From: Patescibacteria group bacterium
GTDB taxonomy: Bacteria; Patescibacteriota; Patescibacteriia; Patescibacteriales; UBA12465
Assembly (NCBI GenBank): GCA_041671365.1
Contig: JBAZBP010000001.1
Span: 389,518-453,517, forward strand
Direction of reading: 5' to 3'
Length of the DNA stretch: 64,000 nt
Made by a program: the position numbers and the translations under genes
Notes under the pieces: model-generated
What the model was told of the DNA's origin: nothing
Databases searched by the model: none
Seen by the model: only the letters and a program-made list of their open reading frames with translations
Part shown: positions 22,324 to 47,845 of the stretch, in pieces
Layout of the letters: each line of letters starts with the position of its first letter
How positions within the stretch are numbered: position 1 is the first letter of the stretch

Positions 22324-23184
22324 ATGTTAGGTTTGATTCATCATAAAAAAATAAAAAAAGACTACCAGCGAAAAAATTCACCGAATCCTTTTTTTCGTCG
22401 TCCGCCGAAAGCAAAAAATTTTCATTTAACTCTGAAGTGGTGGTTAATTTTAGGTTTTTTGTCGCTATTTTTTTTAATTTGGTTGTTTTTGGCCGCGCCT
22501 TGGTGGCGCCTACAAAAGGTAACGATTAGCGGTTTAACCCGAGTGTCCGAAGGGGAAGTGGCTAAAATTATTTGGGATCAAAGCGCGACTAATCATTGGT
22601 TATTCTTTAATGAAAGTAATATTTTTTTATTTGACGGACAGGTTGCCTCTCAACAAATTATCGCCAAATATAACTTGGCCGGAGTAATCATAAAAAAAGA
22701 ATGGCCTCATACTTTGAATTTACTTATTAGTGAACGTCCTTATGCTTTTATTTACAAGGAGGGAAGTCAGTTTTTTTACGCCTCCAACGACGGATATATC
22801 ATTAAACAAGCAACGGTCAGCGAGGAGGACAAACAAAAATATTTTTTATTGGAAAACACTAATCACGACACCTTAATCGCTGATAATAATAAAATTAATA
22901 TCGGCAACGAATATTTAACCTTTATTTTAGCTCTGGACGCCGCCCTAAAGGCTCAGGCCGGTCTGCCGGTCGCGGAGTTCATTATCGATTCCGAACTTAA
23001 CACGGTGAAAGTTAAATTTATTGATGGTCCGATAGCTTATTTTAACGTTAAAGACGCGATTAATAGTCAAATTAACGTTCTACTGCTTGTCAAAAAGGAA
23101 AAAATCAAGGATAATTTTAAAAAGACTAATTATATCGATTTACGCTACGGTAGCCGAGTTTTTATTAATCCAAGTTTTAATTAA
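22324..23184 (+). CDS. FtsQ/DivIB-like cell division protein (POTRA domain)
   Basis: Basic N-terminus, TM, then LQKVTISGLTRVSEGEV POTRA-like start. Confidence 0.55.
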   Translation: MLGLIHHKKIKKDYQRKNSPNPFFRRPPKAKNFHLTLKWWLILGFLSLFFLIWLFLAAPWWRLQKVTISGLTRVSEGEVAKIIWDQSATNHWLFFNESNIFLFDGQVASQQIIAKYNLAGVIIKKEWPHTLNLLISERPYAFIYKEGSQFFYASNDGYIIKQATVSEEDKQKYFLLENTNHDTLIADNNKINIGNEYLTFILALDAALKAQAGLPVAEFIIDSELNTVKVKFIDGPIAYFNVKDAINSQINVLLLVKKEKIKDNFKKTNYIDLRYGSRVFINPSFN

Positions 23185-23195
23185 TTTTTAAATAT

Positions 23196-23336
23196 ATGGA
23201 AGCATTATTTAAATTTTTATTCGCCTTAGCGGTACTTATTTTTTGTATAACCATAGTTGGAATTTTTTTACTCATAATTAAAATAATTCTTTTATTCCAG
23301 CCGCAAGTGTATTTAATGGGGGTGATGTTAAGTTAA
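23196..23336 (+). CDS. possible 46-aa small membrane protein (not in ORF track)
   Basis: Hand translation gives MEALFKFLFALAVLIFCITIVGIFLLIIKIILLFQPQVYLMGVMLS. No other support. Confidence 0.25.
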   Translation: MEALFKFLFALAVLIFCITIVGIFLLIIKIILLFQPQVYLMGVMLS

Positions 23337-23385: not shown

Positions 23386-23413
23386 TTGACGTTTTCGCTT
23401 CCAATGCTATAAT
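23386..23413 (+). promoter_or_regulatory. sigma70-like promoter (TTGACG-16-TGcTATAAT) upstream of xer
   Basis: -35 at 23386-23391; extended -10 with TATAAT at 23408-23413. Confidence 0.5.
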
Positions 23414-23441
23414 AGGTTTATTAATATACATTATGCGAAGT
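23414..23441. other. dif: dif-like 28-bp Xer recombination site
   Basis: The reverse complement ACTTCGCATAATGTATATTAATAAACCT shares a contiguous 16-nt run, CGCATAATGTATATTA, with E. coli dif GGTGCGCATAATGTATATTATGTTAAAT. That run covers the whole central hexamer. Confidence 0.6.
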
Positions 23442-23564: not shown

Positions 23565-24521
23565 ATGGACAAAAATAAAACTATAATTAAATATCTGGCA
23601 GATTACCTGGATTATTGCGAGATTGAAAAAGGCTTATCTTCTAAAACCCAGGAGAATTATACTCGTTTTCTAAAAAAGTTTTTTAATTGGCTAAAGGAGA
23701 CCAACCAAGAGGGTTTAAAACCCTCTTCCCTGACTCCAGAACACATTTGGCGGTATAAAGTCTATCTGGCTCGTCATGTTGATCCTAAAGCCAAAAAAAC
23801 TCTAAAAAAAACTACGCAAAACTATTATTTAATTGCTTTACGTTCTATTTTAGAGTTTTTTGCTGAAAAAGATATTCCTTCCCTGCCGTCTTCAAAAATA
23901 AAATTAGCCAAAGATAAGGCCGATAAAGAAATTAAATTTTTAACCTTGGAGCAATTAGCTCGCTTATTGGAGTCCCCCGATCAAGGCAGTATCATCGGTT
24001 TACGCGATCGGGCTTTACTGGAAACTTTATTTTCTACCGGTTTGCGAGTCGCCGAGTTGGCGGCTTTAAATCAAGAGCAATTGCGAATTAAAACTGATAC
24101 TCTAGATATTGAGACGGCCATTATTGGCAAGGGTAGTAAAATTCGGACCGTTTATTTTTCCGATCGGGCCGTTAAGGCTTTACGTCGTTATCTGTCCGAG
24201 AGAAAGGATTTTGATGAAGCTTTATTTATTAATTATCGCCGCGGAGGCGCTTTAAAACAAGAATCACGGCGTTTAACCGTAAAAAGCATCGAAGATATCG
24301 TTAAAAAATACGTTAAAATTACCGGATTGCCGGTAATGGCTACTCCTCATACTTTGCGTCACTCTTTCGCCACCGATTTATTAAATCAGGGAGTTGATTT
24401 GAGAACAGTCCAAGAATTTTTAGGTCATAGTAATATCGCCACCACGCAAATTTATACTCATGTGACCAATAAGCAATTACGAGATATTCACCGGAAGATT
24501 CACGAGGGACGGAAATTTTAA
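23565..24521 (+). CDS. tyrosine recombinase XerC/XerD family
   Basis: N-terminal SAM-like domain; ETLFSTGLRVAEL, HTLRHSFATDLL, LGHSNIATTQIYTHV. Confidence 0.85.
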   Translation: MDKNKTIIKYLADYLDYCEIEKGLSSKTQENYTRFLKKFFNWLKETNQEGLKPSSLTPEHIWRYKVYLARHVDPKAKKTLKKTTQNYYLIALRSILEFFAEKDIPSLPSSKIKLAKDKADKEIKFLTLEQLARLLESPDQGSIIGLRDRALLETLFSTGLRVAELAALNQEQLRIKTDTLDIETAIIGKGSKIRTVYFSDRAVKALRRYLSERKDFDEALFINYRRGGALKQESRRLTVKSIEDIVKKYVKITGLPVMATPHTLRHSFATDLLNQGVDLRTVQEFLGHSNIATTQIYTHVTNKQLRDIHRKIHEGRKF

Positions 24522-25770: not shown

Positions 25771-27237
25771 TTAGTTTTTTGTAAAATTTATCCCATTCAA
25801 ACGATTTAACGTTTCTGCTTTACCCAGAGCCCAAGCGACCTCAAAAGGACCAGGACTATTTTTTAAACCGGTCAGAGCCACGCGTAACGGCCACAAATAG
25901 TCGCCATTTTTATAATTATTTTTCTTTAGCCAGGTTAAAATTGATTTTTCCAGATTTTCTTTCGTCCAGTCTTTTTCCTTAATTTTTTCCACTTCCCCCT
26001 TTACTTCCTGAAGTTTTATGAGAGATTCTTTGAGAGTTAAAGTTTTCCAGCGCAATATTTCCGGATCATAGCTCGGCAGTTCAAATAAAAAATTAGTTAA
26101 TTCCACAATATCGCTTAATTTTTTTAAACGATCCTGAGCCAGACCGACAAAATTTTGTAATTGTTGTTCGTTTTGTATATCTTGTCCGGCTGCCTGGAGC
26201 CAGGGGCGGGACAAGTTGGCTAATTCGGCCGGTGATTTTTGGCGAATATAATAACCGTTAAAATAATCTAATTTTTCTAAATCAAAGACGGCCGGACTGG
26301 CCCCTAGTCCGTCTAGAGCAAACTTAGATTTCAATTCCTCAAGTGACCAAATTTCTTGATCGTTTTTAGGATGCCAGCCGAGTAAAACGCAAAAATTAAT
26401 TAAAGCTTCCGGCAAATAACCCTTAGCCAGATAATCCTCGACAAAAACATCCCCTTGGCGCTTGCTTAGTTTTCCGCCGCCAGTTTTATTCAAGATTAGA
26501 GGAAAATGAATAAATTTTGGCGGAACCCAGTCAAAAGCTTGATACAATAAAATATTTTTAGGATAAGACGGCAGCCACTCGTCACCCCGAGTAACATAGG
26601 AAATTTCCATTAAATGATCGTCAATAACATTGGCAAATTGGTAAGTTGGAATTCCGTTAGATTTAATTAAAACTTGATCGTCTAAATCAGCTAATTGAAA
26701 TTTAATATCACCGCGTAATTCGTCGCGGACTATGATTTCTCCGGCAGTCGGCATTTTCTGGCGTAAAACAAAACTATCTCCGGCCTGCGCACGCCTATTC
26801 GATTCTTCAAGACTTAATTTCCGGCATAAACCATCGTAACGTGGGGCTTCGTGGTTAGCTTCTTGAGCGGTACGCATGGCCGTTAAACGTTCGGCTGAAC
26901 AAAAACAACGATAAATTTTTTCCTCGTTTAAAAGTTGGGAAGCAAATTTATTATATATTTCTCGGCGTTCGCTCTGAATATACGGACCATACTGACCGCC
27001 GACATGAGGGCCTTCGTCAAATTCCAAACCCATCGTTTTTAGAATATTAATCAACTTTTCGGTCGCTCCGGCGACTTCCCTTTTTTGATCAGTATCTTCA
27101 ATTCTTAAAAGATATTTTCCTTTCCAGTTTTTAACGAGTAAATATCCGAATAAGGCGGTACGTAAATTGCCAATATGCAAAAAACCGGTAGGCGAAGGGG
27201 CTAGACGCAGACGAATTTTATTATTTTTAGAAGACAT
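25771..27237 (-). CDS. gltX: glutamyl-tRNA synthetase
   Basis: RLAPSPTGFLHIGNLRTALF (HIGH) and KLSKRQG (KMSKS). Confidence 0.92.
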   Translation of the reverse strand: MSSKNNKIRLRLAPSPTGFLHIGNLRTALFGYLLVKNWKGKYLLRIEDTDQKREVAGATEKLINILKTMGLEFDEGPHVGGQYGPYIQSERREIYNKFASQLLNEEKIYRCFCSAERLTAMRTAQEANHEAPRYDGLCRKLSLEESNRRAQAGDSFVLRQKMPTAGEIIVRDELRGDIKFQLADLDDQVLIKSNGIPTYQFANVIDDHLMEISYVTRGDEWLPSYPKNILLYQAFDWVPPKFIHFPLILNKTGGGKLSKRQGDVFVEDYLAKGYLPEALINFCVLLGWHPKNDQEIWSLEELKSKFALDGLGASPAVFDLEKLDYFNGYYIRQKSPAELANLSRPWLQAAGQDIQNEQQLQNFVGLAQDRLKKLSDIVELTNFLFELPSYDPEILRWKTLTLKESLIKLQEVKGEVEKIKEKDWTKENLEKSILTWLKKNNYKNGDYLWPLRVALTGLKNSPGPFEVAWALGKAETLNRLNGINFTKN

Positions 27238-27254
27238 ACAAGTAAGCTTGGTGA

Positions 27255-28469
27255 TTATAAATTTTGTGAATTAAATTTTTTAATAAATATTTTTGCCCCG
27301 GTTTGCCTAATAGGATGAAGATTCTCAATTAATTTTTCGCTGGGGACCCATTGCCAGGCAGTATGATCCCAAAAATTTATTTTTATTTCTTCGTCTTTTC
27401 CCTTAAATTCTGCAATATATAAACTTTGTTTTTGGCCCTTATAGCCGCGATGACGATAAATTCTTACCGCGCCCGTCTTATTAGCTTGGTGGTCGGATCC
27501 TCGATCGAATTTATAATGATAAATATTTATAAAGGTTTTTTTATCGACAAAGCTTTCATTTTTAATTCCTAGCTCTTCCTGAAGTTCTCTCCGGCCGGCA
27601 ACAGCGGGACTATTTCTGTCAGTACCTCCCTGCGGTAATTGCCAATGTAATTCGCTACCCTCTGCTTTAACTATTAAAATCTTTTTTTCTTCATTTTCCT
27701 TTTTATATAGAATACAGGCGACGCTCGGCCGATAAAGCCAGCGGTTAATTAAGTTTACATATAAAAATTTACCGATAAAAACTATAGTGGCATTGTAAAT
27801 CCTCTTCCATCTTTTAGGTTGCTTTAGTAAACGCCATAGCCATTCCAATCCTAATTGTCTCATTATTTTTGGAGCGCGTCTAGCTTTTCCGCTTATAAAA
27901 TCAAAGGTTCCGCCGACTGCAAGCGCGAGCTTGACACTCGATAATTTTTTTAGATTATGGAATAATAGTTTTTCCTGATAAGGAAAACCGAGATTCGTAA
28001 ACATTAGGGTCGGAGAAAAAATTTTTATTTGTTCAATAATTTCCGGAGTTAAAAATTTATCACGGCTAATATCAAGCACTTGGAAATTTAAATCAGTAAA
28101 TTTTTGGCTCAAGGAGGACTCGATATCGATTTTTTTTGATAAACCGCCAGTCCAATTCAAAATTAAGGTTTTTATTTTTTTTTGAGCGGCAATTTTTAAT
28201 AACTCCATGCTTAAATCAGCACCGGTGATTCGCGGTAAATTAAAGCCGGATAATAGCCCGGTAATTTTTAAGCCAAAACCGTCGGCAATAGCTACATCAG
28301 CCTTATTTAAAATAAAAAAAAGCTCTTCATCTTGGCCGGCGGCCAGTATTATTTCGGGATTAGGGGTAACCAAATAGTGCTGTTGCCCATCATCCAAAAA
28401 GGTAATAATTTTTTGAATCAGTCTGTCGATCGTTAATTCGTTTAAATTTATTCCCAAAATATTAGCCAT
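27255..28469 (-). CDS. fusion protein: WecB/TagA/CpsF-family glycosyltransferase (N-terminal) plus NUDIX hydrolase (C-terminal)
   Basis: N-terminal ILGINLN...LVTPNPEII..ADGFGL and GLEWLWRLLKQPKRWKRI. C-terminal NUDIX box GGTDRNSPAVAGRRELQEELGI (27564-27629). Confidence 0.75.
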   Translation of the reverse strand: MANILGINLNELTIDRLIQKIITFLDDGQQHYLVTPNPEIILAAGQDEELFFILNKADVAIADGFGLKITGLLSGFNLPRITGADLSMELLKIAAQKKIKTLILNWTGGLSKKIDIESSLSQKFTDLNFQVLDISRDKFLTPEIIEQIKIFSPTLMFTNLGFPYQEKLLFHNLKKLSSVKLALAVGGTFDFISGKARRAPKIMRQLGLEWLWRLLKQPKRWKRIYNATIVFIGKFLYVNLINRWLYRPSVACILYKKENEEKKILIVKAEGSELHWQLPQGGTDRNSPAVAGRRELQEELGIKNESFVDKKTFINIYHYKFDRGSDHQANKTGAVRIYRHRGYKGQKQSLYIAEFKGKDEEIKINFWDHTAWQWVPSEKLIENLHPIRQTGAKIFIKKFNSQNL

Positions 28470-28540
28470 ATGTTATAATATTAGCATATTAATAGTATTA
28501 TAAATATAAGCTTTCGTCAAAAATAATTTATTATATAGAT

Positions 28541-29503
28541 ATGTCTAACTATAAAAAGATAAGTGACCGTATCGAAGAACTAAAACTTGATAACCCGCGG
28601 ATGGTTTCGTCGTTAAAATGGCTTAATATTACCAACGCCGGTAAAAATGAGATTGAATATTTAAGAAAAAATTATCATTTTGATTTAATTCATTTAAAAG
28701 TAGCCTCCGCTTCAATTTCTTTCCAACGGCCGATGATTTTTAAAGGAAAGGATTATTTGTGTCTGGTTTTGCATTTTCCGATTTTTAAAGATGATAAAAT
28801 TATACCGGCGGAAATAGATTTTTATGTCGGACATGGTTTTTTGATCTCGGTTAACAACAATGATTTAAAAGCGTTAGCTAATTTTTTTAATTTAGGTAAA
28901 AAAAGTCCCGATTCCCTGCTCGCCTATTCCTTAGAATCTTCGGCTATATTATTATACGAAATTTTAGGCCATCTGATTGACGGTTGCTATCAGCTTTTAG
29001 ACGAAAATAGTTTAAAAATTAATGAGATTGAAGATTTAATTTTTTCCGATAAACAAAAGGAATCGATGGAACAAATTTTAATTTTACGAAGAAATATCGT
29101 TAATATCCGAAAAATCATTCAGAATCATAAAAGGATTTTACAAAAATTACTGGAAATGGAAAGTAGTTTGGTCGAAAAAACGGCGATTAAAAAGTACTAT
29201 AACGGATTAGTCGAGCATTCAAAAATTATCTGGGAAACGCTGGACAATCAAAAAGAGTTGGTTGAGGTTTTAAATAATACCAATGAATCTTTTTTAAACA
29301 ATCGGATGACCGATATCATGAAAACTTTAACAATTTTTTCGGTTATTATCTTCCCTTTAACTTTGTTGGCGGCTATTTTTGGCATGAAGACCAAAGAAAT
29401 GCCCTTAGTGAACCAACCCGGCAGCTTCTGGATGATTATTGGCCTAATGTTTTTATGCACTTTAGGGATGCTAGCTTTCTTTAAACATAAAAAATTATTG
29501 TAA
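28541..29503 (+). CDS. CorA-family divalent cation transporter homolog with GMK in place of GMN
   Basis: Two C-terminal TM helices with IFGMKTKEMP between them, where CorA has YGMNFxxMP. Confidence 0.7.
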   Translation: MSNYKKISDRIEELKLDNPRMVSSLKWLNITNAGKNEIEYLRKNYHFDLIHLKVASASISFQRPMIFKGKDYLCLVLHFPIFKDDKIIPAEIDFYVGHGFLISVNNNDLKALANFFNLGKKSPDSLLAYSLESSAILLYEILGHLIDGCYQLLDENSLKINEIEDLIFSDKQKESMEQILILRRNIVNIRKIIQNHKRILQKLLEMESSLVEKTAIKKYYNGLVEHSKIIWETLDNQKELVEVLNNTNESFLNNRMTDIMKTLTIFSVIIFPLTLLAAIFGMKTKEMPLVNQPGSFWMIIGLMFLCTLGMLAFFKHKKLL

Positions 29504-29542
29504 AAACAAACATAATCAACTTTTAAAATACTTCTTAAAATT

Positions 29543-29567
29543 AAACCCCTTATTATGAGGGGTTTTT
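29543..29567 (+). terminator. rho-independent terminator
   Basis: AAACCCCT / AGGGGTTT stem plus a T-run. Confidence 0.6.
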
Positions 29568-29640
29568 AAATGGCTAATATTAATAACATAATTGGCTTTT
29601 TTTTATTTAATTTTAGTAAAATATAGCTGGTAATTTTTAC

Positions 29641-29669
29641 TTGACAAATAATTTATTATATAGTAATAT
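29641..29669 (+). promoter_or_regulatory. sigma70-like promoter (TTGACA-17-TAATAT)
   Basis: Read directly, 25 nt upstream of the GT4 start. Confidence 0.5.
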
Positions 29670-29693
29670 GTTAAGTTACATAAATACAGAATT

Positions 29694-30806
29694 ATGAAGA
29701 TTGCTTTTATCGGACAAAAAGGAATACCGGCCAATAACGGCGGCGTAGAAAAATACGTCGAAAGTTTAGCGGTTAATTTGGTGGCTTTAAACCAAGAAGT
29801 TTTAGTATACAATCGCCAAGATTATTTACCCGATCAACTTAAAGAATTTAAGGGGATAAAGATTGTTAATATATCTTATTTTAACAGCAAAAACCTTGCC
29901 AATATTACTCAAACCTTTTTAGCGATTCTTGATGTCTTAAAACGTCGGGTTGATATTGTTCATTTTCAAGGCGTTGGCCCCTCCCTGCTGTGCTGGCTGC
30001 CAAAATTATTTAACCCTCGTTTGAAGATAGTCGCCACTCTGCACAGCTTTGATTATTACAATGACAAATGGAGTTGGTTCGCTAAAAAAATGCTGCAACT
30101 CGGCGAGCACTTAATGTGCCGCTATGCCGATCAGGTTATTGTTTTATCAGTATTCATGAAAAATTATGTCAAAACTAAATATAATTGCGAAGCTACTCTA
30201 ATACCCGGTGGCGCTGATTTGTATACTGCCCTCGACCAAGATTGTTTATCAACCTGGAGTTTAAGCCGAGGAAATTATATTCTTAGCGTTTCCCGAATTA
30301 TTAAATTAAAAGGGTTGCAGTACTTGATTTCCGCCTTTAAAAATTTAAAAACTACAAAAAAATTAGTCATCGTCGGTGAAGGAGAATATCTGGCAGTGTT
30401 AAAAGAATTAGCCGCTAGCGATGACCGAATTATTTTTACCGGCAATCAAAACGGCCGGACACTGGATCAATTGTATGCCAATGCTTATATATTCGTGCAG
30501 CCTTCGGAAATGGAGGGACTATCTATCTCTTTGTTAGAGGCGATGGCCCATCGGAACGCTTGTTTGGTGAGCGATATTGAAGCTAATCGCGAAGCGCTCG
30601 CCGGCACCGGTTTTACTTTTGAAACTAAAAATACGGCCGATTTGCAAAAGCAATTAGAAAAATTACTTATAGATCAGGAAGAAGTAGAAATTAAGGCGGC
30701 GGCGGCCTATGAGCGCGCTCGGCAAAATTTTACTTGGGTTGGAGTGGCTGAAAGGATTTTAAAATTTTATCAAAACTTATTAGCCATAACGGCAAATAAT
30801 AAATAA
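29694..30806 (+). CDS. GT4-family glycosyltransferase
   Basis: KIAFIGQKGIPANNGGVEKYVE N-terminus and PSEMEGLSISLLEAMA (EX7E). Confidence 0.8.
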   Translation: MKIAFIGQKGIPANNGGVEKYVESLAVNLVALNQEVLVYNRQDYLPDQLKEFKGIKIVNISYFNSKNLANITQTFLAILDVLKRRVDIVHFQGVGPSLLCWLPKLFNPRLKIVATLHSFDYYNDKWSWFAKKMLQLGEHLMCRYADQVIVLSVFMKNYVKTKYNCEATLIPGGADLYTALDQDCLSTWSLSRGNYILSVSRIIKLKGLQYLISAFKNLKTTKKLVIVGEGEYLAVLKELAASDDRIIFTGNQNGRTLDQLYANAYIFVQPSEMEGLSISLLEAMAHRNACLVSDIEANREALAGTGFTFETKNTADLQKQLEKLLIDQEEVEIKAAAAYERARQNFTWVGVAERILKFYQNLLAITANNK

Positions 30807-30855
30807 TTTTCTATTTTTAATAGAAAAAAATGATCTTTAAAAACTAAATCAAAAG

Positions 30856-30875
30856 TCATCAATAAAAGGAGATCT
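30856..30875 (+). repeat. left copy of a perfect 20-bp inverted repeat containing an SD (tcatcaataaaaggagatct)
   Basis: Exact reverse-complement match to 32972-32991. Confidence 0.9.
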
Positions 30876-30878
30876 AAC

Positions 30879-32081
30879 ATGAAAAAGTTCTGGTGTGTTA
30901 TTTGTTTATTTGTTCTGGTTCTGTTCGCGGGGGGATGTAAACGGGAAAATCCAGTTGAGGCACCACAGTCGGAAAATTCAGCCGGAATTTTTATGAAAAT
31001 CAATGGGGCGACGCTTCCAGACAGCTCAGTTATGGAAAAACGAACTCAATATATATTTCAATTAACGGCAAATTTTACGGTTAAATCGTGGACAACCACT
31101 TTCGGGGACGATGGGACTAGTGTTTCTGGCGATATTGTCCAGCACGCTTTCAGAGCCGACACTACTTCAACTACGATCATCGTGGTAGCCGTAGACCAAA
31201 ACAATACCGTTCATCAAAAAACGTATAAAGTTACGTTAGTGTCAAACATATCCACTCCTGCCGTTATCTGGGTCTCAAAAAAAGATTTAGGTAATGGTTC
31301 TTGGGAAGAGACCTTTATTTTTCTAAAAGAAATAACCCAAGACTTGGTCGGTCCGTATGCTTATACTGGTAACGTGACCAATCCCACTTGGGTCACGACT
31401 AAATTCGTTGATACCAACAAAATCTTCAATAATGGTACAGTAAGCGATCCGCCATCTGGCGAAAAAGGAATCTATCTGATGGTCAAATTCAATCTTAGTC
31501 CAAATCCTTATGATATGGGTGTCGGTAAAATTGACCCCGCAACTAATTCCTTGATTTGGAAAGAATTTGACGGTCCGTACGCTGACGGCAATCACGTTAA
31601 GTTTACGGTCACGGCTAATGGCGACGTTACGCCAGGCGGAGTAATCCCTAATAACACTGACCCTCCTGGTGATATCGGTGATATCGGTCCCAACGCCGTC
31701 AACCGATATGGAGTAAGAGATTCTACTAAGCTCGTAATATTAGTAAATAATTTTACTCCTTGGGTTTCGGGATCTAGTTTTATCAGATCTCAAAATTCAG
31801 CCGGTTTATTTGTTCAGCCTGTTTTACAAAATGAAATTCCGGTTTATAGTAATTGGGGTAAATTAGAAATTCTAACGAAAGACATTCCGGCTGACGGAAA
31901 GTTGGTTTTCAATTATGGAAATCAAATTTCTAACCCGCTGGGATTTAATCCTAACGCTTCTAAGTCCTATTTCTACTCCGAGACAAGTGGGGTACTAAAA
32001 GTTATTATAAAAAAAGTCGGTTTAGGTAAAGTCACCGGTACCGGTCCAAAACAATATTGGACAGTCACCGTTGAAAGATAA
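30879..32081 (+). CDS. hypothetical lipoprotein
   Basis: MKKFWCVICLFVLVLFAGGC lipobox-like signal. Strong SD AAGGAG. G+C is higher than the surroundings. Confidence 0.6.
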   Translation: MKKFWCVICLFVLVLFAGGCKRENPVEAPQSENSAGIFMKINGATLPDSSVMEKRTQYIFQLTANFTVKSWTTTFGDDGTSVSGDIVQHAFRADTTSTTIIVVAVDQNNTVHQKTYKVTLVSNISTPAVIWVSKKDLGNGSWEETFIFLKEITQDLVGPYAYTGNVTNPTWVTTKFVDTNKIFNNGTVSDPPSGEKGIYLMVKFNLSPNPYDMGVGKIDPATNSLIWKEFDGPYADGNHVKFTVTANGDVTPGGVIPNNTDPPGDIGDIGPNAVNRYGVRDSTKLVILVNNFTPWVSGSSFIRSQNSAGLFVQPVLQNEIPVYSNWGKLEILTKDIPADGKLVFNYGNQISNPLGFNPNASKSYFYSETSGVLKVIIKKVGLGKVTGTGPKQYWTVTVER

Positions 32082-32105
32082 AAAACTGAACCGAAGATAT
32101 TTAAA

Positions 32106-32134
32106 GCCGCGTGTAAACTATACGCGGTTTTTTT
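32106..32134 (+). terminator. rho-independent terminator
   Basis: CCGCGT / ACGCGG stem plus T7. Confidence 0.65.
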
Positions 32135-32168
32135 AATTTTATTTATGGGGGCCCGCAGTTAGCGCCAA

Positions 32169-32201
32169 TAAAAAACCCTTATCTACTTGCGTAAATAAGG
32201 G
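32169..32201 (-). terminator. rho-independent terminator for the minus-strand island genes
   Basis: CCCTTAT / ATAAGGG stem. The A-run on the plus strand gives a T-run on the minus strand. Confidence 0.6.
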
Positions 32202-32263
32202 CTTGGAAACTATCTATCTATCACCGTAGATATGGTAGTCTCCGAAAGCTAAACTAGTTCGGC

Positions 32264-32968
32264 TTATTTCTGCCAAACATAGTAATCGCCTTCTAACGAC
32301 ATCGGTACCAATTTCCATTGGGTGGCGCCGGTAGTTAATAATAGAATTTTGACTATCTTTTGCGGTCCGAGATAGTCACTTAGAGCACCTGCCCTAATCC
32401 CAATTTTTCCACTAGTCGTAACGCACACGTCGCCAGTGAAATAATCCACAAACTGCGAGATTGCAATCCGGAAATTTATTCCGTCCCGAGTGGTGTTCGG
32501 AACAGAATAGTTATATTGCTTTTGGTCCCGATCGAGCGCGATCTGGGGCCACCAATTACCTGAATTGTCGTTTAGCTGCACCGCGAACTCGGTATAGTTA
32601 TTGGAGCCACAAAGGTTTGTGACCCCTGATGACGAAACGCTACTTGGTGTAGCTGACGATGCTGCCGGAGCGTCGTAAGTAATTGTGTTCGGTGCAGGAG
32701 TTGGACTTTCTTCGTTGTCCGTAATCGGTCTAATATAGGTCGGTCTAACATAGGTATGTTGACGACCGGATGATTTTTTACTACATTTTTTTAAACTCTC
32801 GACACTTTTAATTAAAGAGTCGGCCTTGGCCAGCCATACTGAATCCATGTTCACTGTTTTTTGTTTAACGGATTCTTTGACGGCCGTGAAGCAATTCCAT
32901 GGTTTTAGTAAAAACACTGCTACTACTATAATAAGAATCGCGGCCCAAATTACATTGGTTCTGTTCAT
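32264..32968 (-). CDS. hypothetical N-terminally anchored protein
   Basis: TM VIWAAILIIVVAVFLL. Strong SD within the 20-bp repeat. Confidence 0.55.
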   Translation of the reverse strand: MNRTNVIWAAILIIVVAVFLLKPWNCFTAVKESVKQKTVNMDSVWLAKADSLIKSVESLKKCSKKSSGRQHTYVRPTYIRPITDNEESPTPAPNTITYDAPAASSATPSSVSSSGVTNLCGSNNYTEFAVQLNDNSGNWWPQIALDRDQKQYNYSVPNTTRDGINFRIAISQFVDYFTGDVCVTTSGKIGIRAGALSDYLGPQKIVKILLLTTGATQWKLVPMSLEGDYYVWQK

Positions 32969-32971
32969 TTC

Positions 32972-32991
32972 AGATCTCCTTTTATTGATGA
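32972..32991 (-). repeat. right copy of the perfect 20-bp inverted repeat
   Basis: agatctccttttattgatga is the reverse complement of 30856-30875. Confidence 0.9.
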
Positions 32992-33008
32992 TTTATGATT
33001 GATTTTTT

Positions 33009-33860
33009 TTAATACAAACCGGAAATATTTACACTGACCCCAAAACTAAATTGTTTACTCCACTTGTACAGGTAGTAAACTGATGCGAAATCATCTTCAC
33101 CCCATTGATGGATAGACATTTCAACTCCAAGTCCGTACTCTCCCTTCTTATTGCCAACCGCATAACTATATGTCCCGAGAATTTTTGGACTTAGATATGA
33201 TGTTTTGTGAACATACCAATTAACCAAACTTCCTTTAGCTGTAGCTTGGTAATAAGTCATGTTCCAGGGATTATCGGCTAATTGTTCATTGTTCCAATAA
33301 GCCTCTTGTTTTGTCAGTAGAGGTTTTTGCACCCCTAGCTGGACCTGAAACCTGGGAAAATAATTTCCAACTCGTTTTAACAAGTTGAAATTTAAACTCC
33401 CACAAACTAAGACATCTTCTTGCCTTCCCCGATAATTCCCTACTTTTGTCGAGCTCGCCCCCTTGTTCAGAGAATACATAAACCCCAAGCTGATTCCGGT
33501 AAAGGAATCATACAGACGACTGAATGACGGACTGTAATAACCGAAAATATTCCCGAAACCAAGACTCAGTCCTTTTCCGGAATATCTCTCCATATTGTCA
33601 ACAAAACGAGAATCGTTAGCTGAAGCCCAAATTCCGTACGTTGTTTGTTGATTTTGAGATTGGCTAAATATATAATCCGCAAACACTCCATCGTAGGAGT
33701 TGTAGGTATTTAGATTCATAATTTTGGCGCCTACTCCGCCATAAATAACTAAATCATATTTCGCTGTTTTTGTCGGGAGCATCTGTATTCCGATAGAGTT
33801 TTGCCCCAGAAGAGATGCCGTCATAACCATGGCTAGCCACAGTGTTAGTATTTTTTTCAT
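33009..33860 (-). CDS. secreted beta-barrel-like protein resembling outer-membrane porin/OMP families
   Basis: Signal peptide MKKILTLWLAMVMTASLLGQ. Alternating-hydrophobic Gly/Tyr-rich strands and a C-terminal FSFGVSVNISGLY ending in an aromatic residue. Very strong SD GAAGGAGGAGG. Confidence 0.5.
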   Translation of the reverse strand: MKKILTLWLAMVMTASLLGQNSIGIQMLPTKTAKYDLVIYGGVGAKIMNLNTYNSYDGVFADYIFSQSQNQQTTYGIWASANDSRFVDNMERYSGKGLSLGFGNIFGYYSPSFSRLYDSFTGISLGFMYSLNKGASSTKVGNYRGRQEDVLVCGSLNFNLLKRVGNYFPRFQVQLGVQKPLLTKQEAYWNNEQLADNPWNMTYYQATAKGSLVNWYVHKTSYLSPKILGTYSYAVGNKKGEYGLGVEMSIHQWGEDDFASVYYLYKWSKQFSFGVSVNISGLY

Positions 33861-33923
33861 TTTGAACCTCCTCCTTCGGGGGTTGTTTGTTATAGAACTT
33901 AATTGATTATTTAAAATTAATTA

Positions 33924-34712
33924 TTAATATTTTAAAACATTATTCATATTTCCCCGAGGCTGAAATTCTTCCGGTCGGTAATTGTTTTCCTGAAAATTAT
34001 TTAAATTGTTCGGGGTACTGACGGGGTAATAGTCTATTTTAATATTGTGCCCGATATTTTTAGTTTTTTTGGCACTACGTGTCGGCCAAAGTTTAATATT
34101 GTAGCGCTCTTCCGGAAAAAGATAAACATAAAACAAAGATAAGGTCAGGCTGCCGGCTAAAGCTAAGGCGAGATTTTGGGGAATATTTGGTCGGACCGGA
34201 TAACTGGAAATAAGGGGCTGATCAATAATATTAATTTTAATTTCCGTTCCGTTGCCCTGATAATTAGCGTTTTTGTTCATTAATACGTCATTGACGGCTA
34301 AAGCAATCTGCTGAGCTTGATAAGGGTTAGGATGATAAATGTCAATCTCGATAATACCGGTATCAGCTAAGGTTTTAGTTTGAATCGTCTGGGTCCAGGT
34401 TTTGATCTGTTGATTATAATTGCCGGAAAAATAATTCTTATCAATATCATACTGAGAATTAAGAGCTAAATTATAAAAAGATCCGGAATAAACTACTTGA
34501 GCAAAAAGATTACCCAAATACTCATTAGACTCGGAAACGGTATAAGGGTCGTTCCCGACGGTATTCTGAACTACCAATAAGCGAGATTTGGCTTCATATT
34601 TTAAGGGAAAAAGCAAAGAAATACCTAAGGTTAAAATAAGAATTATAAAAACCAGGGTTAATATCGTTCCCCTTTTCTTTTTTATCAGTTTAATGAAATT
34701 CAAGAACTCCAT
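33924..34712 (-). CDS. Wzz/YveK-like polysaccharide chain-length determinant protein
   Basis: N-terminal TM followed by PLKYEAKSRLLV, and a C-terminal TM. Confidence 0.5.
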   Translation of the reverse strand: MEFLNFIKLIKKKRGTILTLVFIILILTLGISLLFPLKYEAKSRLLVVQNTVGNDPYTVSESNEYLGNLFAQVVYSGSFYNLALNSQYDIDKNYFSGNYNQQIKTWTQTIQTKTLADTGIIEIDIYHPNPYQAQQIALAVNDVLMNKNANYQGNGTEIKINIIDQPLISSYPVRPNIPQNLALALAGSLTLSLFYVYLFPEERYNIKLWPTRSAKKTKNIGHNIKIDYYPVSTPNNLNNFQENNYRPEEFQPRGNMNNVLKY

Positions 34713-34883
34713 ATATCTTTATTAGATTAATAAATTATAATACTATAAATTTTTTTACTTGTCAATAGAAGTTAAAAAATAGACGTTAATTCTTTGTTAT
34801 CATTGACAATTTTTATTAAATCAGATAGAGTTTAATGAATACAATTAATTTAATATTAATTTAATTAATATTAGCCAAATTTT

Positions 34884-36191
34884 ATGAAAAGGATAATTTT
34901 TCTGTCCGTAATCTGTTTAATGGCAGTTTTAGCTTTAACCCATAACGGCCAAACGCAAACAAAATCTTATTATTCCGGAGATGCGATTAATTTTAATAAT
35001 TCCCTTTACGTTGGTTCAACCGATACCGGGAGTTTGGAGATTTTTAAATTGGAGAATAATGATTTACAGCAATTAGTTACGCTGCGACCGCTAGATGCTC
35101 GTTTCGGACGCTATGAAAGCTTTTACGATTTAAAATTTTCAGTGGAATCCGGCCATCTGTTTGTTTATACTATTAACGGTTACAGTTTGTATAAATATGA
35201 AGTAGTCGGCGATAATCGCTTAGTTTTGATTGTCAGTTCCAAAAATACTTATTGGGAGTGGTATAATCGGGTTGATAAATTTGGCGACAATATTATTACC
35301 ATTAGCGATAAGGGGGCAAAAGTTTGGACTAATGACTTGCAGACTATTATTGCTTATACCGCTTCGGATCTGGCTATTCCGGTCGCCACGGATTCTTATA
35401 ATAGCAATTATAATATCCGGGCCTATAATAATAATTATATTTTAAATGTTCAAAATAATTATTTAACGGTATTCAGCCGCGAAACTCAAACACAAATAAG
35501 CAATATCCCGCTAAATTACAAGATTAATCCCGGTAATCGCCAAGCTTACCAAGATGAGAATAACGATATTTTCGTTGTCGATGATTATTATGCTAAAAAG
35601 TTTTCACTCGATGGACACCTGCTCGGCAGTTTTCGCCATTTAGACTATGCCGGTTATGATGTGGCTATCTCCGGCCACAGCAATTACCTTTATTTTTCAA
35701 ACGGTATTGGTTTGGTAAAATTGGATAAGGACACGATGAAATTAGCCGAATTCCGTTATACCGGCGGTTTGGGCGGTCCGCGCGGCTGGGCCATGGGTTT
35801 AAAGTCGGTTTATGTTAATGGCGATAAAGTTGTAGTCTTTAATAATTCGAATATTTTAGTTTTAGATTCTAACTTAAATAAATTGGCCGTTTGGCAGGCG
35901 ACGGAAGTAACGACTCCGGTTAGCGTCGAAAATTTATATCTCAATCTGGATCATAGCGTGGGCACGCCGCAAGCCAAAATTGTTTTAAGCGGCGGCGGCT
36001 ATCTTCCTAATGAAAATTTAATAATTACTTTCGGTGATGTCCAAACGGCCGGCCAGGCTGATGCTCGCGGCCGCTTTACTCAGAATTTATCAGTGCCAAA
36101 CTTGCCTATCGGTTCGCCCGATATTACTGATATTAAAGTAGTCGGCGCCAGTTCAAATTTAAGTTATAGTATTTCCTTCAAAATCAAATAA
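34884..36191 (+). CDS. hypothetical secreted protein (beta-propeller-like sequence character)
   Basis: Signal peptide, no motif recognised. Confidence 0.5.
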   Translation: MKRIIFLSVICLMAVLALTHNGQTQTKSYYSGDAINFNNSLYVGSTDTGSLEIFKLENNDLQQLVTLRPLDARFGRYESFYDLKFSVESGHLFVYTINGYSLYKYEVVGDNRLVLIVSSKNTYWEWYNRVDKFGDNIITISDKGAKVWTNDLQTIIAYTASDLAIPVATDSYNSNYNIRAYNNNYILNVQNNYLTVFSRETQTQISNIPLNYKINPGNRQAYQDENNDIFVVDDYYAKKFSLDGHLLGSFRHLDYAGYDVAISGHSNYLYFSNGIGLVKLDKDTMKLAEFRYTGGLGGPRGWAMGLKSVYVNGDKVVVFNNSNILVLDSNLNKLAVWQATEVTTPVSVENLYLNLDHSVGTPQAKIVLSGGGYLPNENLIITFGDVQTAGQADARGRFTQNLSVPNLPIGSPDITDIKVVGASSNLSYSISFKIK

Positions 36192-36210
36192 ATTAATCAA
36201 AGCCCTGCTA

Positions 36211-36245
36211 AAAATACCGCCCTGAATTCAGGGCGGTATTTTTTA
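36211..36245. terminator. bidirectional terminator (32-nt perfect palindrome)
   Basis: AAAATACCGCCCTGAA / TTCAGGGCGGTATTTT lies between convergent genes. Confidence 0.75.
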
Positions 36246-37463
36246 TTTGAGAAGTTTTTGATAAAGGGCTAATACTTCTTTAATATTTTGATCGGGCGAG
36301 AAGGCTTCGACGGTTTTTTTAGCTTCCCGACCGATAGCTAATCGATCGATTTCAGTCAAACGTTTTATCTGTCTGACCAAATCATTAACATCACCGGGTT
36401 GAAACAGCAAACCGTTTTTATTTTCTTTTATCACTTCGGGCATACCGCCGATTCTGGATACGATGACAATCTTTCCCAGACTAAGCGCTTCCATTAAGCT
36501 TAAAGGCATGTTCTCTCCCCAAATTGAAGGAATAATGACGGCTCGAGCGTTCACGATAATCGGTTTTAACTCCTGATTATTTTTAAATCCGCTGAATTCT
36601 ACGGGCGCCCTCAGCTCTGTCGCCAATTTTTTTAGAGCGGCTTCTTCCGCTCCCTCGCCGACCAGTTTAGTTTTTTGGCCGGTGAGAGCAGCTGCTCGAA
36701 TCAAAGTCTCTAAGCCCTTTTCTGGGCTGAAACGACCAAAATACAAAAGATATTCGGGACTACGGTTATTTTTTTCGTCGCCGCGAGTTCCCGCCAATTC
36801 GGAGTTATAAGGGTTAAAAATAACCGAAATTTTTTCCGCCGGGTGTCCAAAATTAACGACAATTTCTTTCATAAAATTGCTGGGAGCAATAAACCAAGAA
36901 ACGTTTTGTTCATAAATTTTTAAAATCGAATGATGCCAATACATTTCTAGGGTACCCAGGGCGCTTCCGGCGAAAGAGTTTTTAATACATCTATTTTTTA
37001 GACATTCATAGTACTTGTTCGGCCGGCAGCGTTCACACATCATCCCTTTGGTAAATAAAGTGTGATTGGCGCAAATTAATTTATAATCTTGCAAATGCAG
37101 AACTACCGGTATTTTATATTTTTGGGATACGCTTAAAATCGAAGGTGATAGATGATGATAAATATTATGCAGGTGGATAATATCCGGCTGAAAATCTCTA
37201 ACCAACCGAGTAAATTTTTTTTTCGCTTCTAAACTATATAATACCCGGCCCGGCGTTTTTAACTTATCGATTAAATTGCCCTCGTTAAAGCTGATACGCG
37301 AAACGAAATAACGACTCCAAAGGGTCGGCCAATTTTTAGGATGATGCATGGAAAAGACGGCAACTTGATGTCCGGCCGCTTCTAAATTTTTCGTTAAATC
37401 GAGAAAATATTTATCGGCGCCGCCGCGAGGATAATAAAATTGATTAACTTGTAATATTTTCAT
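36243..37463 (-). CDS. GT4-family glycosyltransferase
   Basis: MKILQVNQFYYPRGGADKY, EGAEE.., PSIWGENMPLSLMEALS. Confidence 0.8.
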   Translation of the reverse strand: MKILQVNQFYYPRGGADKYFLDLTKNLEAAGHQVAVFSMHHPKNWPTLWSRYFVSRISFNEGNLIDKLKTPGRVLYSLEAKKKFTRLVRDFQPDIIHLHNIYHHLSPSILSVSQKYKIPVVLHLQDYKLICANHTLFTKGMMCERCRPNKYYECLKNRCIKNSFAGSALGTLEMYWHHSILKIYEQNVSWFIAPSNFMKEIVVNFGHPAEKISVIFNPYNSELAGTRGDEKNNRSPEYLLYFGRFSPEKGLETLIRAAALTGQKTKLVGEGAEEAALKKLATELRAPVEFSGFKNNQELKPIIVNARAVIIPSIWGENMPLSLMEALSLGKIVIVSRIGGMPEVIKENKNGLLFQPGDVNDLVRQIKRLTEIDRLAIGREAKKTVEAFSPDQNIKEVLALYQKLLK

Positions 37464-38586
37464 GGCTGATATTTTTTTTATTTAATAAATCGAAATATAA
37501 AACCTGATATCTTTTCGCAATTTTAGAAATATCATAATTATTAATTATTCGTTCCCGTAAGCGTTCGGCTCTGAAGTTAACTTCCGGACTATCAATATTG
37601 TTAGCGAGCCAATAAATTTTAGCCGCCCAGGCCGCCTCGTCGCCGGCCGGTACCGGCCAACCGGTGCCTTCATCAATAATCTCCCTGATACCGTCAACCG
37701 ACGAAGCGATTATTGGTAAACCGATTAAACCCGCTTCCAATAAAACCAGACCCTGCCCTTCCCATAAAGAAGGAAAAACAAACACATCAAGAGAATTAAG
37801 AAACCGAACCGATTCTACCGGACCGACTAATTTTATCTCCGTTTTTAATTTTGCGGCGGCTATTTCATCTTTTAATTTATGGGCGAGAGGTCCGACACCG
37901 GCGATCAGGCATAAATACCCCCGCTGTTTTAATTGCTTCCAAACGCGAATTAGGCCGGAATACCCTTTTTGCGGACTAAGCCGGCCGATTGTTCCGAAAA
38001 CTAGAGGTTTATTTTTTCTGACCTGATTAACGACAGAATTTTTAGCTTGATTTAAAAATTTATTTATTTCCAAACCATTGGGAATAACAATAATTTTATT
38101 TTCTTTGGTGCGATAACGAGAAATCAGATCGCTTTTAACCGCTTGAGAAATGGCGACAATCTTATCGGCATAACGGCCGGTGATTCTTTTGATAATATTA
38201 TTTAGCAGTTTTTCATCGGGATTAACATTTTGTTCCGTTGATAAAATAACCGGTATTTTTAATAACTTAGCCGCCAGTCGGCCGTAAATATCGCCGCCAA
38301 GCTGGGTATGGACAATTTCGGGATTAATTTTTTTCAAAACTTTAAATAGTTGCCAAAAATTTATTAGATCAATTTTATGTTTTTTTTCTAAAATAATAAC
38401 GGGAATATTTTTTGTGCTTAATTCGCTTAACCAATCGCCGCCGCGCTTAAACAAAATTAAAGTTGAGTTGAAAAATCGACTATCTAAATTAAGAATTAGA
38501 TCCGTTATAAATCTTTCCGCCCCGCCCTTGTCCAGCGAGGGCATAACATAAACAATCTTAATTTTATTTTGACGGCTTTGGTTCAT
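37444..38586 (-). CDS. GT4-family glycosyltransferase
   Basis: KIVYVMPSLDKGGAERF and PSLWEGQGLVLLEAG. 20-nt overlap with the downstream gene. Confidence 0.8.
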   Translation of the reverse strand: MNQSRQNKIKIVYVMPSLDKGGAERFITDLILNLDSRFFNSTLILFKRGGDWLSELSTKNIPVIILEKKHKIDLINFWQLFKVLKKINPEIVHTQLGGDIYGRLAAKLLKIPVILSTEQNVNPDEKLLNNIIKRITGRYADKIVAISQAVKSDLISRYRTKENKIIVIPNGLEINKFLNQAKNSVVNQVRKNKPLVFGTIGRLSPQKGYSGLIRVWKQLKQRGYLCLIAGVGPLAHKLKDEIAAAKLKTEIKLVGPVESVRFLNSLDVFVFPSLWEGQGLVLLEAGLIGLPIIASSVDGIREIIDEGTGWPVPAGDEAAWAAKIYWLANNIDSPEVNFRAERLRERIINNYDISKIAKRYQVLYFDLLNKKNISHENITS

Positions 38587-39850: not shown

Positions 39851-39882
39851 AACTGACTTAATAATATACTAAAATTAGGAAT

Positions 39883-39909
39883 AAAAAAAGGGCTGAAATG
39901 TTCCAGCCC
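39883..39909 (-). terminator. rho-independent terminator
   Basis: GGGCTG / CAGCCC stem. The plus-strand A7 gives T7 on the minus strand. Confidence 0.6.
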
Positions 39910-39939
39910 TAAAACGTCAAAATGTTAAAACGTTTTGTT

Positions 39940-40974: not shown

Positions 40975-41088
40975 GATTTCTTTTCCTTTTTATATTTATT
41001 TTTTAAATGACACATTATCGGTTATTAACGAAAACAATCAATTTAAGTTGATTGTTTAGTGTATAATATTTTTTAGTTTTAGTCAAGG

Positions 41089-41757
41089 CTATTTTTCTAG
41101 AAATAAAACGCAATGCCCCATAATTCCTCGCCATTTTAATTTTTTTAAAATTTTATCGTAGGTTTTTCCTAAAAAATTTAAAATTGGGAAATGGTAGAGA
41201 TAAGAATAAATTGCTGGAAAACGTCGATCCTCTTGTAGTTTTAATCCATTATTTTCAAATAATTTTATTAGCTTTTCTATACTGCCATAAGCGTATTTAA
41301 CCGGATAGGCCGGATCATGACCTTTTTCACGCAGTAGTTGGTGAAAAGAAGTCGGAGTTATGCGGGCTAAGCGGAATTCCGGAGCCCGGGGGTTAGATAG
41401 ACTAATTATAAGTTTCCCCCCCGGTTTTAAAATACGAGTTATTTCGGAGGCGGCCGCCAGCGGATCGGAAATATGTTCTAAAACAAAATTGGCGAAAACG
41501 CAGTCGTATTCGTTAGAGTTAATGGCTGTCATTTTTTCTAAAGGACAAATAAAACTTTGTCCGATGTATTCTTTAGAAACAGTATTGGGCTGGATATCCG
41601 ATCGGTCGCAAACAAAATTAATGCCGTCTTGGATTAATTCCTCTTCGATAACGACACTTTGAGCCGCTCCTAAATTAATAATTTTTGATTTTCCCGAAAC
41701 TAACTTTAGAATTTTTTTTAAAAGTTTAATTAGGTATTTTTCGGCGTCATTCTGCAT
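41089..41757 (-). CDS. class I SAM-dependent methyltransferase
   Basis: DCVFANFVLEHISDP and LKPGGKLIISL. Confidence 0.7.
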   Translation of the reverse strand: MQNDAEKYLIKLLKKILKLVSGKSKIINLGAAQSVVIEEELIQDGINFVCDRSDIQPNTVSKEYIGQSFICPLEKMTAINSNEYDCVFANFVLEHISDPLAAASEITRILKPGGKLIISLSNPRAPEFRLARITPTSFHQLLREKGHDPAYPVKYAYGSIEKLIKLFENNGLKLQEDRRFPAIYSYLYHFPILNFLGKTYDKILKKLKWRGIMGHCVLFLEK

Positions 41758-41761
41758 ACTT

Positions 41762-43657: not shown

Positions 43658-43662
43658 AAAAT

Positions 43663-46621: not shown

Positions 46622-46629
46622 CTACTAAT

Positions 46630-47843: not shown

Positions 47844-47845
47844 GT

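Follow-up and report, generated by a model that had tools for sequence, protein, structure and literature searches.

Does the chromosome of an ultra-small bacterium of the Patescibacteria (candidate phyla radiation) carry a dif site directly upstream of its cognate recombinase gene? This question is raised by a 28-bp sequence at positions 23414-23441 of a stretch of 64,000 nucleotides (hereafter the window) from a Patescibacteria group bacterium (GenBank assembly GCA_041671365.1, contig JBAZBP010000001.1, positions 389,518 to 453,517 of the forward strand), which a preliminary description had singled out as dif-like and next to a lone Xer recombinase gene. Our analysis, which is built on sequence comparison, makes it highly probable that 23414-23441 serves a Falkowbacteria-like Patescibacteria genome as its chromosomal dif and that the gene starting 123 nt downstream encodes the Xer acting on it. 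It would be an ordinary kind of dimer-resolution system, apparently hitherto undescribed in Patescibacteria: we found no description of the site in the literature on dif, Xer or chromosome dimer resolution in Patescibacteria or the candidate phyla radiation.

The plus strand of 23414-23441 reads AGGTTTATTAATATACATTATGCGAAGT and its reverse complement ACTTCGCATAA-TGTATA-TTAATAAACCT, as first reported. The putative dif, which lies on the minus strand and is identified from its sequence, matrix score, conservation and a switch of skew and polar words, comprises (in plus-strand coordinates) an A-arm (ACTTCGCATAA, 23431-23441), a centre (TGTATA, 23425-23430) and a B-arm (TTAATAAACCT, 23414-23424). 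It has the two inverted 11-bp arms around a 6-bp centre that characterize dif (Le Bourgeois 2007, Kono 2011). E. coli dif is GGTGCGCATAATGTATATTATGTTAAAT, a string present in 11 papers, including Kono 2011 (PMC3025954). The two sites are identical at 19/28 positions and have in common a contiguous run of 16 nt, CGCATAATGTATATTA. The claim that such a match is improbable by chance holds, the expectation for any E. coli dif 16-mer being 0.0028 in 64 kb at the composition of the window and over both strands. A search for the 28-mer that tolerates up to 3 mismatches gives a single hit in the window and no hit in 100 shuffles. With a position weight matrix derived from the xer-linked sites of relatives, the site scores 39.3 bits and the runner-up place in the window 3.4 bits.

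Relatives were drawn from a scan of one genome per species, which provided 80 loci of up to 21 kb (+-10 kb around xer) whose Xer is 57-84% identical to that of the window; individual loci and contigs are designated by L numbers. The best matrix hit in ~20 kb, searched on both strands, lies 11-1104 nt upstream of xer in 78 of the 78 testable loci, the contigs of the other two beginning 20 and 85 nt before xer. Across these sites the A-arm ACTTCGCATAA is nearly invariant, the centre is TGTAGA or TGTATA, and the B-arm varies by lineage: it is TTAAGCGAAGT in many lineages, which makes the arms alike at 10/11 positions, and TTAATACACCT or TTAATAAACCT in the Falkowbacteria group, including the window. 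In some relatives the agreement between the arms reaches 10 or even all 11 positions. Only 3 secondary sites score above 8 bits in 1.94 Mb of relatives. An exact search of all metagenome contigs for the 22-mer ACTTCGCATAATGTATATTAAT returned 100 contigs with one copy each, 89 of which have xer adjacent on the A-arm side; in 5 others the contig is cut too near the site for a test, and the remaining 6 end after 457-772 nt, inside the observed range of gaps between site and xer (11 to >1100 nt in relatives, up to ~2000 nt in metagenome contigs). The search for further copies that had been recommended at the outset therefore gives one in the window and one per contig in the metagenome set. The B-arms of the metagenome contigs keep the pattern TTAATnmACnT, which indicates that this arm is constrained and not decaying.

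Linkage of the site to a recombinase gene, by which single-recombinase modules are recognized, is seen in the window (gap of 123 nt), in 78/78 loci and in 89 contigs. Synteny around the terminus is also kept, with CTP synthase (PyrG) on one side and the glutamyl-tRNA synthetase GltX on the other, and the A-arm faces the GltX side in both groups of relatives. Relative to dif, the xer gene itself is found towards GltX in the Falkowbacteria group and towards CTP synthase in the Paceibacteria-like group; in both it reads away from dif, hence dif is upstream. One possibility is that the switch of side arose by inversion of a module with a near-palindromic site, the asymmetry of which then re-evolved.

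A few loci depart from the simple arrangement. Extra half-sites or weak second sites occur near dif in L037 (9963-9990), L066 (8634-8661), L072 (2366-2393 and 14319-14346) and L041 (11909-11936); that of L037 consists of an A-arm and TGCTATAAT 38 nt before xer, and the second site of L066 comes right after the xer stop codon. They do not suit a simple insertion signature and may be rearrangement relics or chance matches. The interval between dif and xer holds small, unrelated genes of 84-267 aa, most of them on the minus strand, in L001, L009, L012, L021-L025, L027, L030, L037 and L042, and the few hundred bases beside dif look like a hot spot of gene gain.

The position of the site agrees with that of a replication terminus. 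G-C skew is positive over the first ~23 kb of the window, stays close to zero up to 36 kb and then turns negative; the best two-segment change point falls at 23380, 34 nt from the site. Up to 24521, nearly every open reading frame (ORF) of at least 120 aa is encoded on the plus strand; past that point the minus strand predominates. The passage from positive to negative skew, together with the converging genes, indicates that the replichores meet here, as at a terminus rather than an origin. Relatives show the same pattern when their loci are aligned on the site: in bins of 1 kb, mean skew is ~+0.08 to +0.13 throughout the eight bins left of the site and -0.03 to -0.10 in each one right of it, the left value exceeds the right one in 37/38 loci having enough flank, and the profile over ~40-60 species flips at the site. 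The 28-mer is located, like dif sites elsewhere, at the sign change of compositional strand bias. In contigs of relatives, the locus falls at 17% of 911 kb and at 77% of 678 kb, positions that by themselves say nothing about its place relative to oriC.

A second kind of polarity converges on the same point. When strand-skewed words were counted without bias in relatives' flanks (1.88 Mb, oriented towards the site), the AGGGAAG family ranked at the top. AGGGAAG occurs 561 times towards the site and 23 times away from it, CAGGGAAG 241 and 5 times, GCAGGGAAG 113 times and once, and GGGNAGGG, the FtsK-orienting polar sequence (KOPS) of E. coli, 165 and 8 times. On both replichores, 96-99% of the AGGGAAG family is skewed towards dif (window, L001-L080 and L201-L300), and the orientation flips exactly at the site, with 66 plus-strand copies and 1 minus-strand copy in the 1-kb bin to the left and 3 plus and 97 minus in that to the right. 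This polarity is independent of gene strand, since of the copies inside xer across relatives, 97 are antisense and 2 sense. In the window, 12/12 AGGGAAG copies point at the site: three on the plus strand to its left (6403-6409, 9155-9161 and 22760-22766, the last before dif) and nine on the minus strand to its right. The latter consist of three CAGGGAAG within 470 nt of dif (23517-23524, 23725-23732 and 23878-23885), two of them antisense within xer, and six further AGGGAAG at 27075, 29350, 40468, 45320, 47911 and 52807 (span 27075..52813), of which those at 29350 and 45320 sit inside plus-strand genes. Words of the KOPS type thus converge on the site as they do on a dif, and (C)AGGGAAG is a candidate KOPS of Patescibacteria, which would steer a pump of the FtsK/SpoIIIE type.

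The nearest thing to functional evidence for the site comes from what appears to be a natural recombination product in a relative. In L022 (CAZXEE010000001.1, 4067-9425), a 5.3-kb inovirus-like element is inserted exactly in the dif centre, and the FtsQ-like gene is ~7 kb from xer instead of ~1-2 kb. A half-site scan located both junctions. The left one, attL at 4067, is ACGTGGATTAA-TATACA-TTTTCAAACCC and has exactly the left arm and centre of the dif in the sister loci L021 and L030; the right one, attR at 9398, is ACTTCGCATAA-TATACA-TTATGCGAAGT and has exactly the centre and right arm of that dif, and the rebuilt attB equals the dif of L021 and L030. These hybrid junctions place the crossover within TAATATACATT. 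The element encodes a G2P-type rolling-circle Rep (PF23343, 1.5e-21; phrog_3419, 2e-30), a Zot/pI-like morphogenesis ATPase (PF05707), a 506-aa protein read as secreted and small hydrophobic proteins, and tblastn with the window Xer as query detected no integrase in it. It bears the signature of an integrative element exploiting the host Xer, its junctions pointing to integration. The proposal that a dif site lies here beside its recombinase gene is borne out by the skew change point, the single copy, the conservation in 78/78 loci, the polar word and this integration.

We also considered the perfect palindrome found in L022 as an ancestral form of the site and rejected this view, the palindrome being the hybrid attR made by the phage insertion. 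An exact search of IMG/VR for the attP of the L022 element (ACTTCGCATAA-TATACA-TTTTCAAACCC), as a free phage would carry it, gave no match. L362 carries a similar attP-like site (with a TTATCAAACCT arm) but no proteins homologous to the L022 element. Hits to short viral patterns (15-17 specified bases) proved to be mostly chance matches or high-GC inovirus prophages sharing the A-arm and centre, and only six contigs were kept as leads. These low-GC IMG/VR contigs have complete dif-like sites of the Patescibacteria type, which score 22-40 bits, and none has an orthologous xer: L138 (1156-1183), L096 (1803-1830), L107 (2792-2819), L135 (10844-10871), L188 (389-416) and L178 (14591-14618). The site of L138 lies between PHROG-confirmed small and large terminase genes and that of L107 adjoins a confirmed large terminase gene; L096 and L188 have a similar-looking layout of unannotated genes, and L135 and L178 have no annotated gene nearby. 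Such phage-borne sites may be attP or multimer-resolution sites that use the host Xer.

The gene to the right of dif (23565..24521, plus strand) is transcribed away from it and encodes a 318-aa tyrosine recombinase of the Xer family, identified by Pfam, NCBIfam and PDB matches. Its start codon at 23565 is 123 nt past the site, close to the ~125 nt originally estimated. Pfam detects Phage_integrase (4.2e-42) and a SAM-like N-terminal domain, and the segments holding the catalytic R, K, HxxR, H and Y are aligned and conserved with respect to E. coli XerD in an alignment read by eye. The protein scores below the curated cut-offs of the NCBIfam models for XerC (TIGR02224; 225.5 bits, cut-off 335), XerD (TIGR02225; 221.4 bits, cut-off 330) and XerA (NF040815; 194.5 bits, cut-off 220), and below the cut-off for XerS (117 bits, cut-off 267). 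Among PDB entries, E. coli XerD is the best match (8e-35), followed by archaeal XerA (~1e-31) and, far behind, XerH (5jjv, 8.7e-15). Since all scores stay below their cut-offs and the XerH match is weak, we regard the protein as an Xer-family enzyme that is neither XerC, XerD, XerA, XerS nor XerH by the available models; as judged from these scores, it resembles XerC, XerD and XerA about equally. The likeness to XerS/difSL and XerH/difH that had been suggested for the locus consequently stands for the arrangement, in which the site is linked to the gene, and falls for family membership, the protein being outside both families.

The Xer of the window is 100% identical to a protein from a metagenome-assembled genome named 'Patescibacteria group bacterium', and >120 protein clusters, several of them named Candidatus Falkowbacteria, are 78-95% identical to it; its orthologues across species range from 57 to 100% identity. 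In the passage of Smyshlyaev 2021 (PMC8138268) that concerns them, Xer-related enzymes of candidate phyla form a subgroup, 'Cand', among taxon-specific enzymes possibly standing in for Xer. Neither that passage nor the other literature that we found gives a dif site for this subgroup.

Is one recombinase enough for a site with unlike arms? A true dif could instead be served by two recombinases, the linked Xer on the A-arm in the manner of XerC and an unlinked second Xer paralogue on the B-arm, a reading that we hold to be possible though on balance unlikely. It would explain why the two arms differ as much as XerC arms differ from XerD arms (5/11 positions agree) and why the B-arm of the Falkowbacteria group is kept as TTAATnmACnT with no free drift. 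Many high-GC bacteria (those with inovirus prophages in IMG/VR) moreover have a dif whose XerC side is the same as the A-arm and centre here, and the XerC and XerD models score the protein nearly equally. The B-arm TTAATAAACCT, however, is not of the XerD type, as it matches the XerD-arm consensus TTATGTnAAAT at 5/11 positions. Many relatives with an orthologous Xer have near-identical arms (for example ACTTCGCATAA and ACTTCGCTTAA, alike at 10/11), which suits a single protein, and the functional-looking dif that L022 retains after phage integration is a perfect palindrome of the form A-c-A'. No second Xer-like gene was detected by tblastn with Xer in the 64-kb window, as the preliminary description had claimed for its sole Xer-family gene, nor within +-10 kb of xer in the 80 relatives. 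The enzymes of candidate phyla are set apart in the 'Cand' subgroup in the passage cited (PMC8138268), and linkage of dif to its gene has so far been a hallmark of single-recombinase systems (PMC5357621).

Directly before the site, a consensus scan locates the likely xer promoter at 23386..23413 on the plus strand, a predicted sigma-70-type element with a -35 TTGACG (23386-23391), a 16-nt spacer, a TG at 23405-23406 and TATAAT at 23408-23413. Its abutment on the site had been noted before and is confirmed: with its extended -10 (TGcTATAAT) the promoter agrees with 11/12 consensus positions and has the TG extension in addition, the site starts at the base right after the -10 hexamer, and the predicted transcription start lies within the B-arm. 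Of the short-gap loci (site <=130 nt from xer), 42/99 have a consensus promoter with the end of its -10 placed 0-15 nt ahead of the site, versus 45/815 random control segments (5.5%). Promoter-like sequence between site and xer occurs in 9/99 short-gap loci and in 44/56 longer-gap loci. In some of the latter, terminator-like hairpins bracket the site or an unrelated small gene comes after it.

The strong promoter directly before the 28-mer, and its recurrence in 42/99 short-gap relatives, could mean that this sequence mainly serves the transcription of xer, as an operator or promoter element whose imperfect palindrome a regulator binds; its likeness to dif would then be vestigial or a coincidence. 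Such an element would hardly tolerate what the relatives show: a gap to xer that extends from 11 to >1100 nt (~2000 in metagenome contigs) and that in many loci contains terminator-like hairpins or unrelated genes, and a site found in both orientations relative to xer. Nor would it account for the flip of GC skew and polar word exactly at the site, for a phage in the central hexamer in L022, or for tailed-phage contigs that carry full copies far from any xer. We consider the operator explanation largely refuted by these points and very improbable.

If the 28-mer is a dif, its overlap with the predicted start of transcription would still have a consequence. In the window, and in the relatives with the same layout, transcription is expected to begin at the site or within it, where RNA polymerase would be in competition with recombinase on the DNA. 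Autoregulation of xer by dif-bound recombinase is plausible from this layout and would be lineage-dependent: the order promoter-site-xer recurs, but in other relatives terminators or a whole gene separate xer from the site. In Paceibacteria-like loci (L050, L054-L057, L060-L062, L064, L067 and L071-L073), the 40-50 nt before the site contain a TTGACA/G -35, a spacer and a TATAAT-like box, followed by dif; the spacer in these loci holds a short GC-rich inverted repeat. This hairpin may have a regulatory role, or it may be where the preceding gene terminates, in which case terminator and xer promoter would overlap.

A third explanation, on which the surrounding genes bear, is that a mobile element has integrated here, with xer as its integrase and the 28-mer as one of its attachment sites. 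The last genes of the left replichore are the pair 22324..23336, made of a gene for an FtsQ-like POTRA protein (22324-23184, plus strand; Pfam POTRA_1, with synteny in group 1 loci) and a conserved gene for a hydrophobic peptide of 46-47 aa (23196-23336, plus strand), which comes from the ORF list and is called as a gene in L419-L422. To their left lie CTP synthase, DnaX and seryl-tRNA synthetase. On the right replichore, the genes for an M23 peptidase (24518-25750, minus strand) and GltX (25771-27237, minus strand), both assigned by Pfam and syntenic in 50-53/80 loci, are followed by a WecG-type transferase and CorA. An integrase gene beside an att site is typical of integrative elements, and the occurrence of xer on either side of dif, depending on the lineage, is slightly like that of a movable module. 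The neighbours named above are, however, conserved housekeeping genes, and we found no second copy or half-site in the window. Our search around the site for known RNA families, tRNA genes and flanking repeats found none that was relevant. At 57-84% identity, Xer is among the best conserved proteins of the locus (FtsQ 24-55%, GltX 33-72%), and each relative has one orthologue, always at the skew switch. An origin from a mobile element accordingly seems to us as improbable as the operator explanation.

Two further features of the surroundings were recorded. An 824-aa coupling ATPase is encoded at 13762-16236 (plus strand), ~8-10 kb left of dif, and is syntenic in the Falkowbacteria group with 77-89% identity over the part seen; we considered it as FtsK and rejected this assignment, as it matches coupling proteins of the VirD4/TraD type and not FtsK (Pfam, NCBIfam). 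Right of the terminus, the segment 28000-36200 has a GC content of 0.32-0.35 and holds glycosyltransferase and unannotated genes in mixed orientation. It may be a variable surface-polysaccharide island.

Several observations weigh against the reading of the locus as a dif with its Xer, or set its reach. The formal cumulative-skew maximum lies at 35998, 12.5 kb right of the site; the skew check proposed at the outset comes out in favour of the site by the change point, 34 nt away, with the formal extremum as a caveat. We attribute this maximum to a plateau caused by a low-GC block (28.5-36 kb) with plus-strand genes, and the matrix scan detected no dif-like sequence within that block. The inner palindrome of the site keeps 4/6 pairs of the criterion of Kono (counted manually), which is weaker than in a classical dif, and the agreement of A-arm and B-arm at 5/11 positions is an asymmetry that would also suit two different recombinases. 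In the protein, the RQ..Q patch by which XerD contacts FtsK-gamma reads RD..R (LRQLHQQ in XerD, LRDIHRK here). No ftsK gene was detected in the 64-kb window; strain TM7x of the Patescibacteria has an annotated one (PMC10768705). The loci scored by the matrix were also its training set; the training, however, did not dictate where the top hit would fall. Genome coverage was the 64-kb window, for which the uniqueness of the site and of Xer holds. Finally, we infer from sequence the binding, the cleavage, the order of strand exchange, the action of one Xer on both arms, the dependence on FtsK and the autoregulation.

Taken with these reservations, the data fit the following scheme. Homologous recombination would join sister chromosomes into a dimer, and Xer would bind both 11-bp arms of each dif, one of them (ACTTCGCATAA, the A-arm) strongly conserved and the other (TTAATAAACCT, the B-arm) weaker and specific to the lineage. 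Once bound, the sites would pair and strands would be exchanged at the edges of the 6-bp TGTATA, by which two monomers would be restored. A septum-bound pump of the FtsK/SpoIIIE type, steered to dif by (C)AGGGAAG, would switch recombination on. As the xer promoter abuts dif, the dif-bound recombinase probably also dampens its own transcription. Extending this scheme to ABY1/Falkowbacteria and Paceibacteria as a whole, we tentatively suggest that they use one XerC/D-like enzyme whose gene is kept at the 28-bp dif and whose level it sets itself through a promoter that runs into the site, with (C)AGGGAAG as their own KOPS and a site used by integrase-less filamentous and possibly tailed phages; we advance this as a conjecture with somewhat more against it than for it.

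Our findings have implications beyond this genome. The radiation is very large and mostly uncultured, and its metagenome-assembled genomes are now checked mainly by GC skew. A site beside xer together with a polar 7-8-mer would provide a sequence-level marker of the terminus, by which assemblies can be verified and oriented. The polar word also predicts the recognition sequence of an FtsK/SpoIIIE-type pump in Patescibacteria. The insertion in L022 suggests that phages borrow the host Xer, a route of gene flow and a potential integration tool for Patescibacteria, which are only beginning to be genetically tractable. This would be the third bacterial lineage with a dif linked to its recombinase gene, here with a conventional XerC/D-like enzyme and a canonical site, and a gene-linked canonical system bears on the evolution of one- and two-recombinase systems. 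If the conjecture above is right, the fact that xer, on whichever side of dif it lies, always reads away from it would imply that selection keeps dif upstream, beyond mere linkage.

In its architecture the locus is close to XerS/difSL of streptococci and lactococci, in which an FtsK-dependent site with one strong and one weak arm lies at the terminus just upstream of the gene (PMC1914069, PMC5357621). Both are modules of site and gene at the terminus with one strong arm and one weak, but difSL is 31 bp long with an 11-bp centre, compared with 28 bp and a 6-bp centre here, and XerS has 356 aa and belongs to a distinct family. XerH/difH of Helicobacter and Campylobacter is likewise described as a site near its gene with asymmetric arms, one of which is bound harder, and a link to FtsK (PMC5357621; eLife 2016, PMC5241119). 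The present locus has in common with it the nearness to the recombinase gene and the asymmetry of the arms, whereas XerH, at 354-362 aa, is a distant relative and the arm sequences of difH are unrelated to those found here. In both of these systems, as the literature has it, the linkage of dif to its gene goes with a single recombinase (PMC5357621).

The site itself has more in common with the classical two-recombinase systems. It shares with E. coli XerCD/dif the length of 28 bp, the 11-6-11 organization, a nearly identical A-arm and centre, and the position at the skew switch; the dif of B. subtilis matches it at ~20/28 positions. Converging polar words (KOPS GGGNAGGG in XerCD/dif and the SpoIIIE recognition sequence (SRS) GAGAAGGG in CodV-RipX/dif) and exploitation by integrase-less filamentous phages are further points of likeness to both. 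Unlike here, both recombinase genes of XerCD and of CodV-RipX are far from dif and from each other, and the polar word in Patescibacteria is (C)AGGGAAG. The L022 element resembles the integrative mobile elements exploiting Xer (IMEX; concept in PMC5357621), such as CTXphi and VGJphi of Vibrio, in being inovirus-like, integrase-less and inserted in the dif centre, in having an attP with one good and one degenerate arm, and in regenerating a usable dif beside the element upon integration. It differs from the Vibrio IMEX in its host, a Patescibacteria genome, from which it is known in the integrated form. Archaeal XerA/dif, a 28-bp site with near-identical arms and a single XerC/D-like enzyme of ~280-320 aa (PMC2958812), has the arm symmetry of the near-palindromic Patescibacteria lineages, yet dif of Thermococcales is not beside xerA (PMC2958812) and XerA acts without FtsK (PMC5357621). 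By sequence comparison, then, the locus is most like XerS/difSL and XerH/difH in its arrangement, and most like the classical XerCD system and XerA in the sequence of its site and protein.

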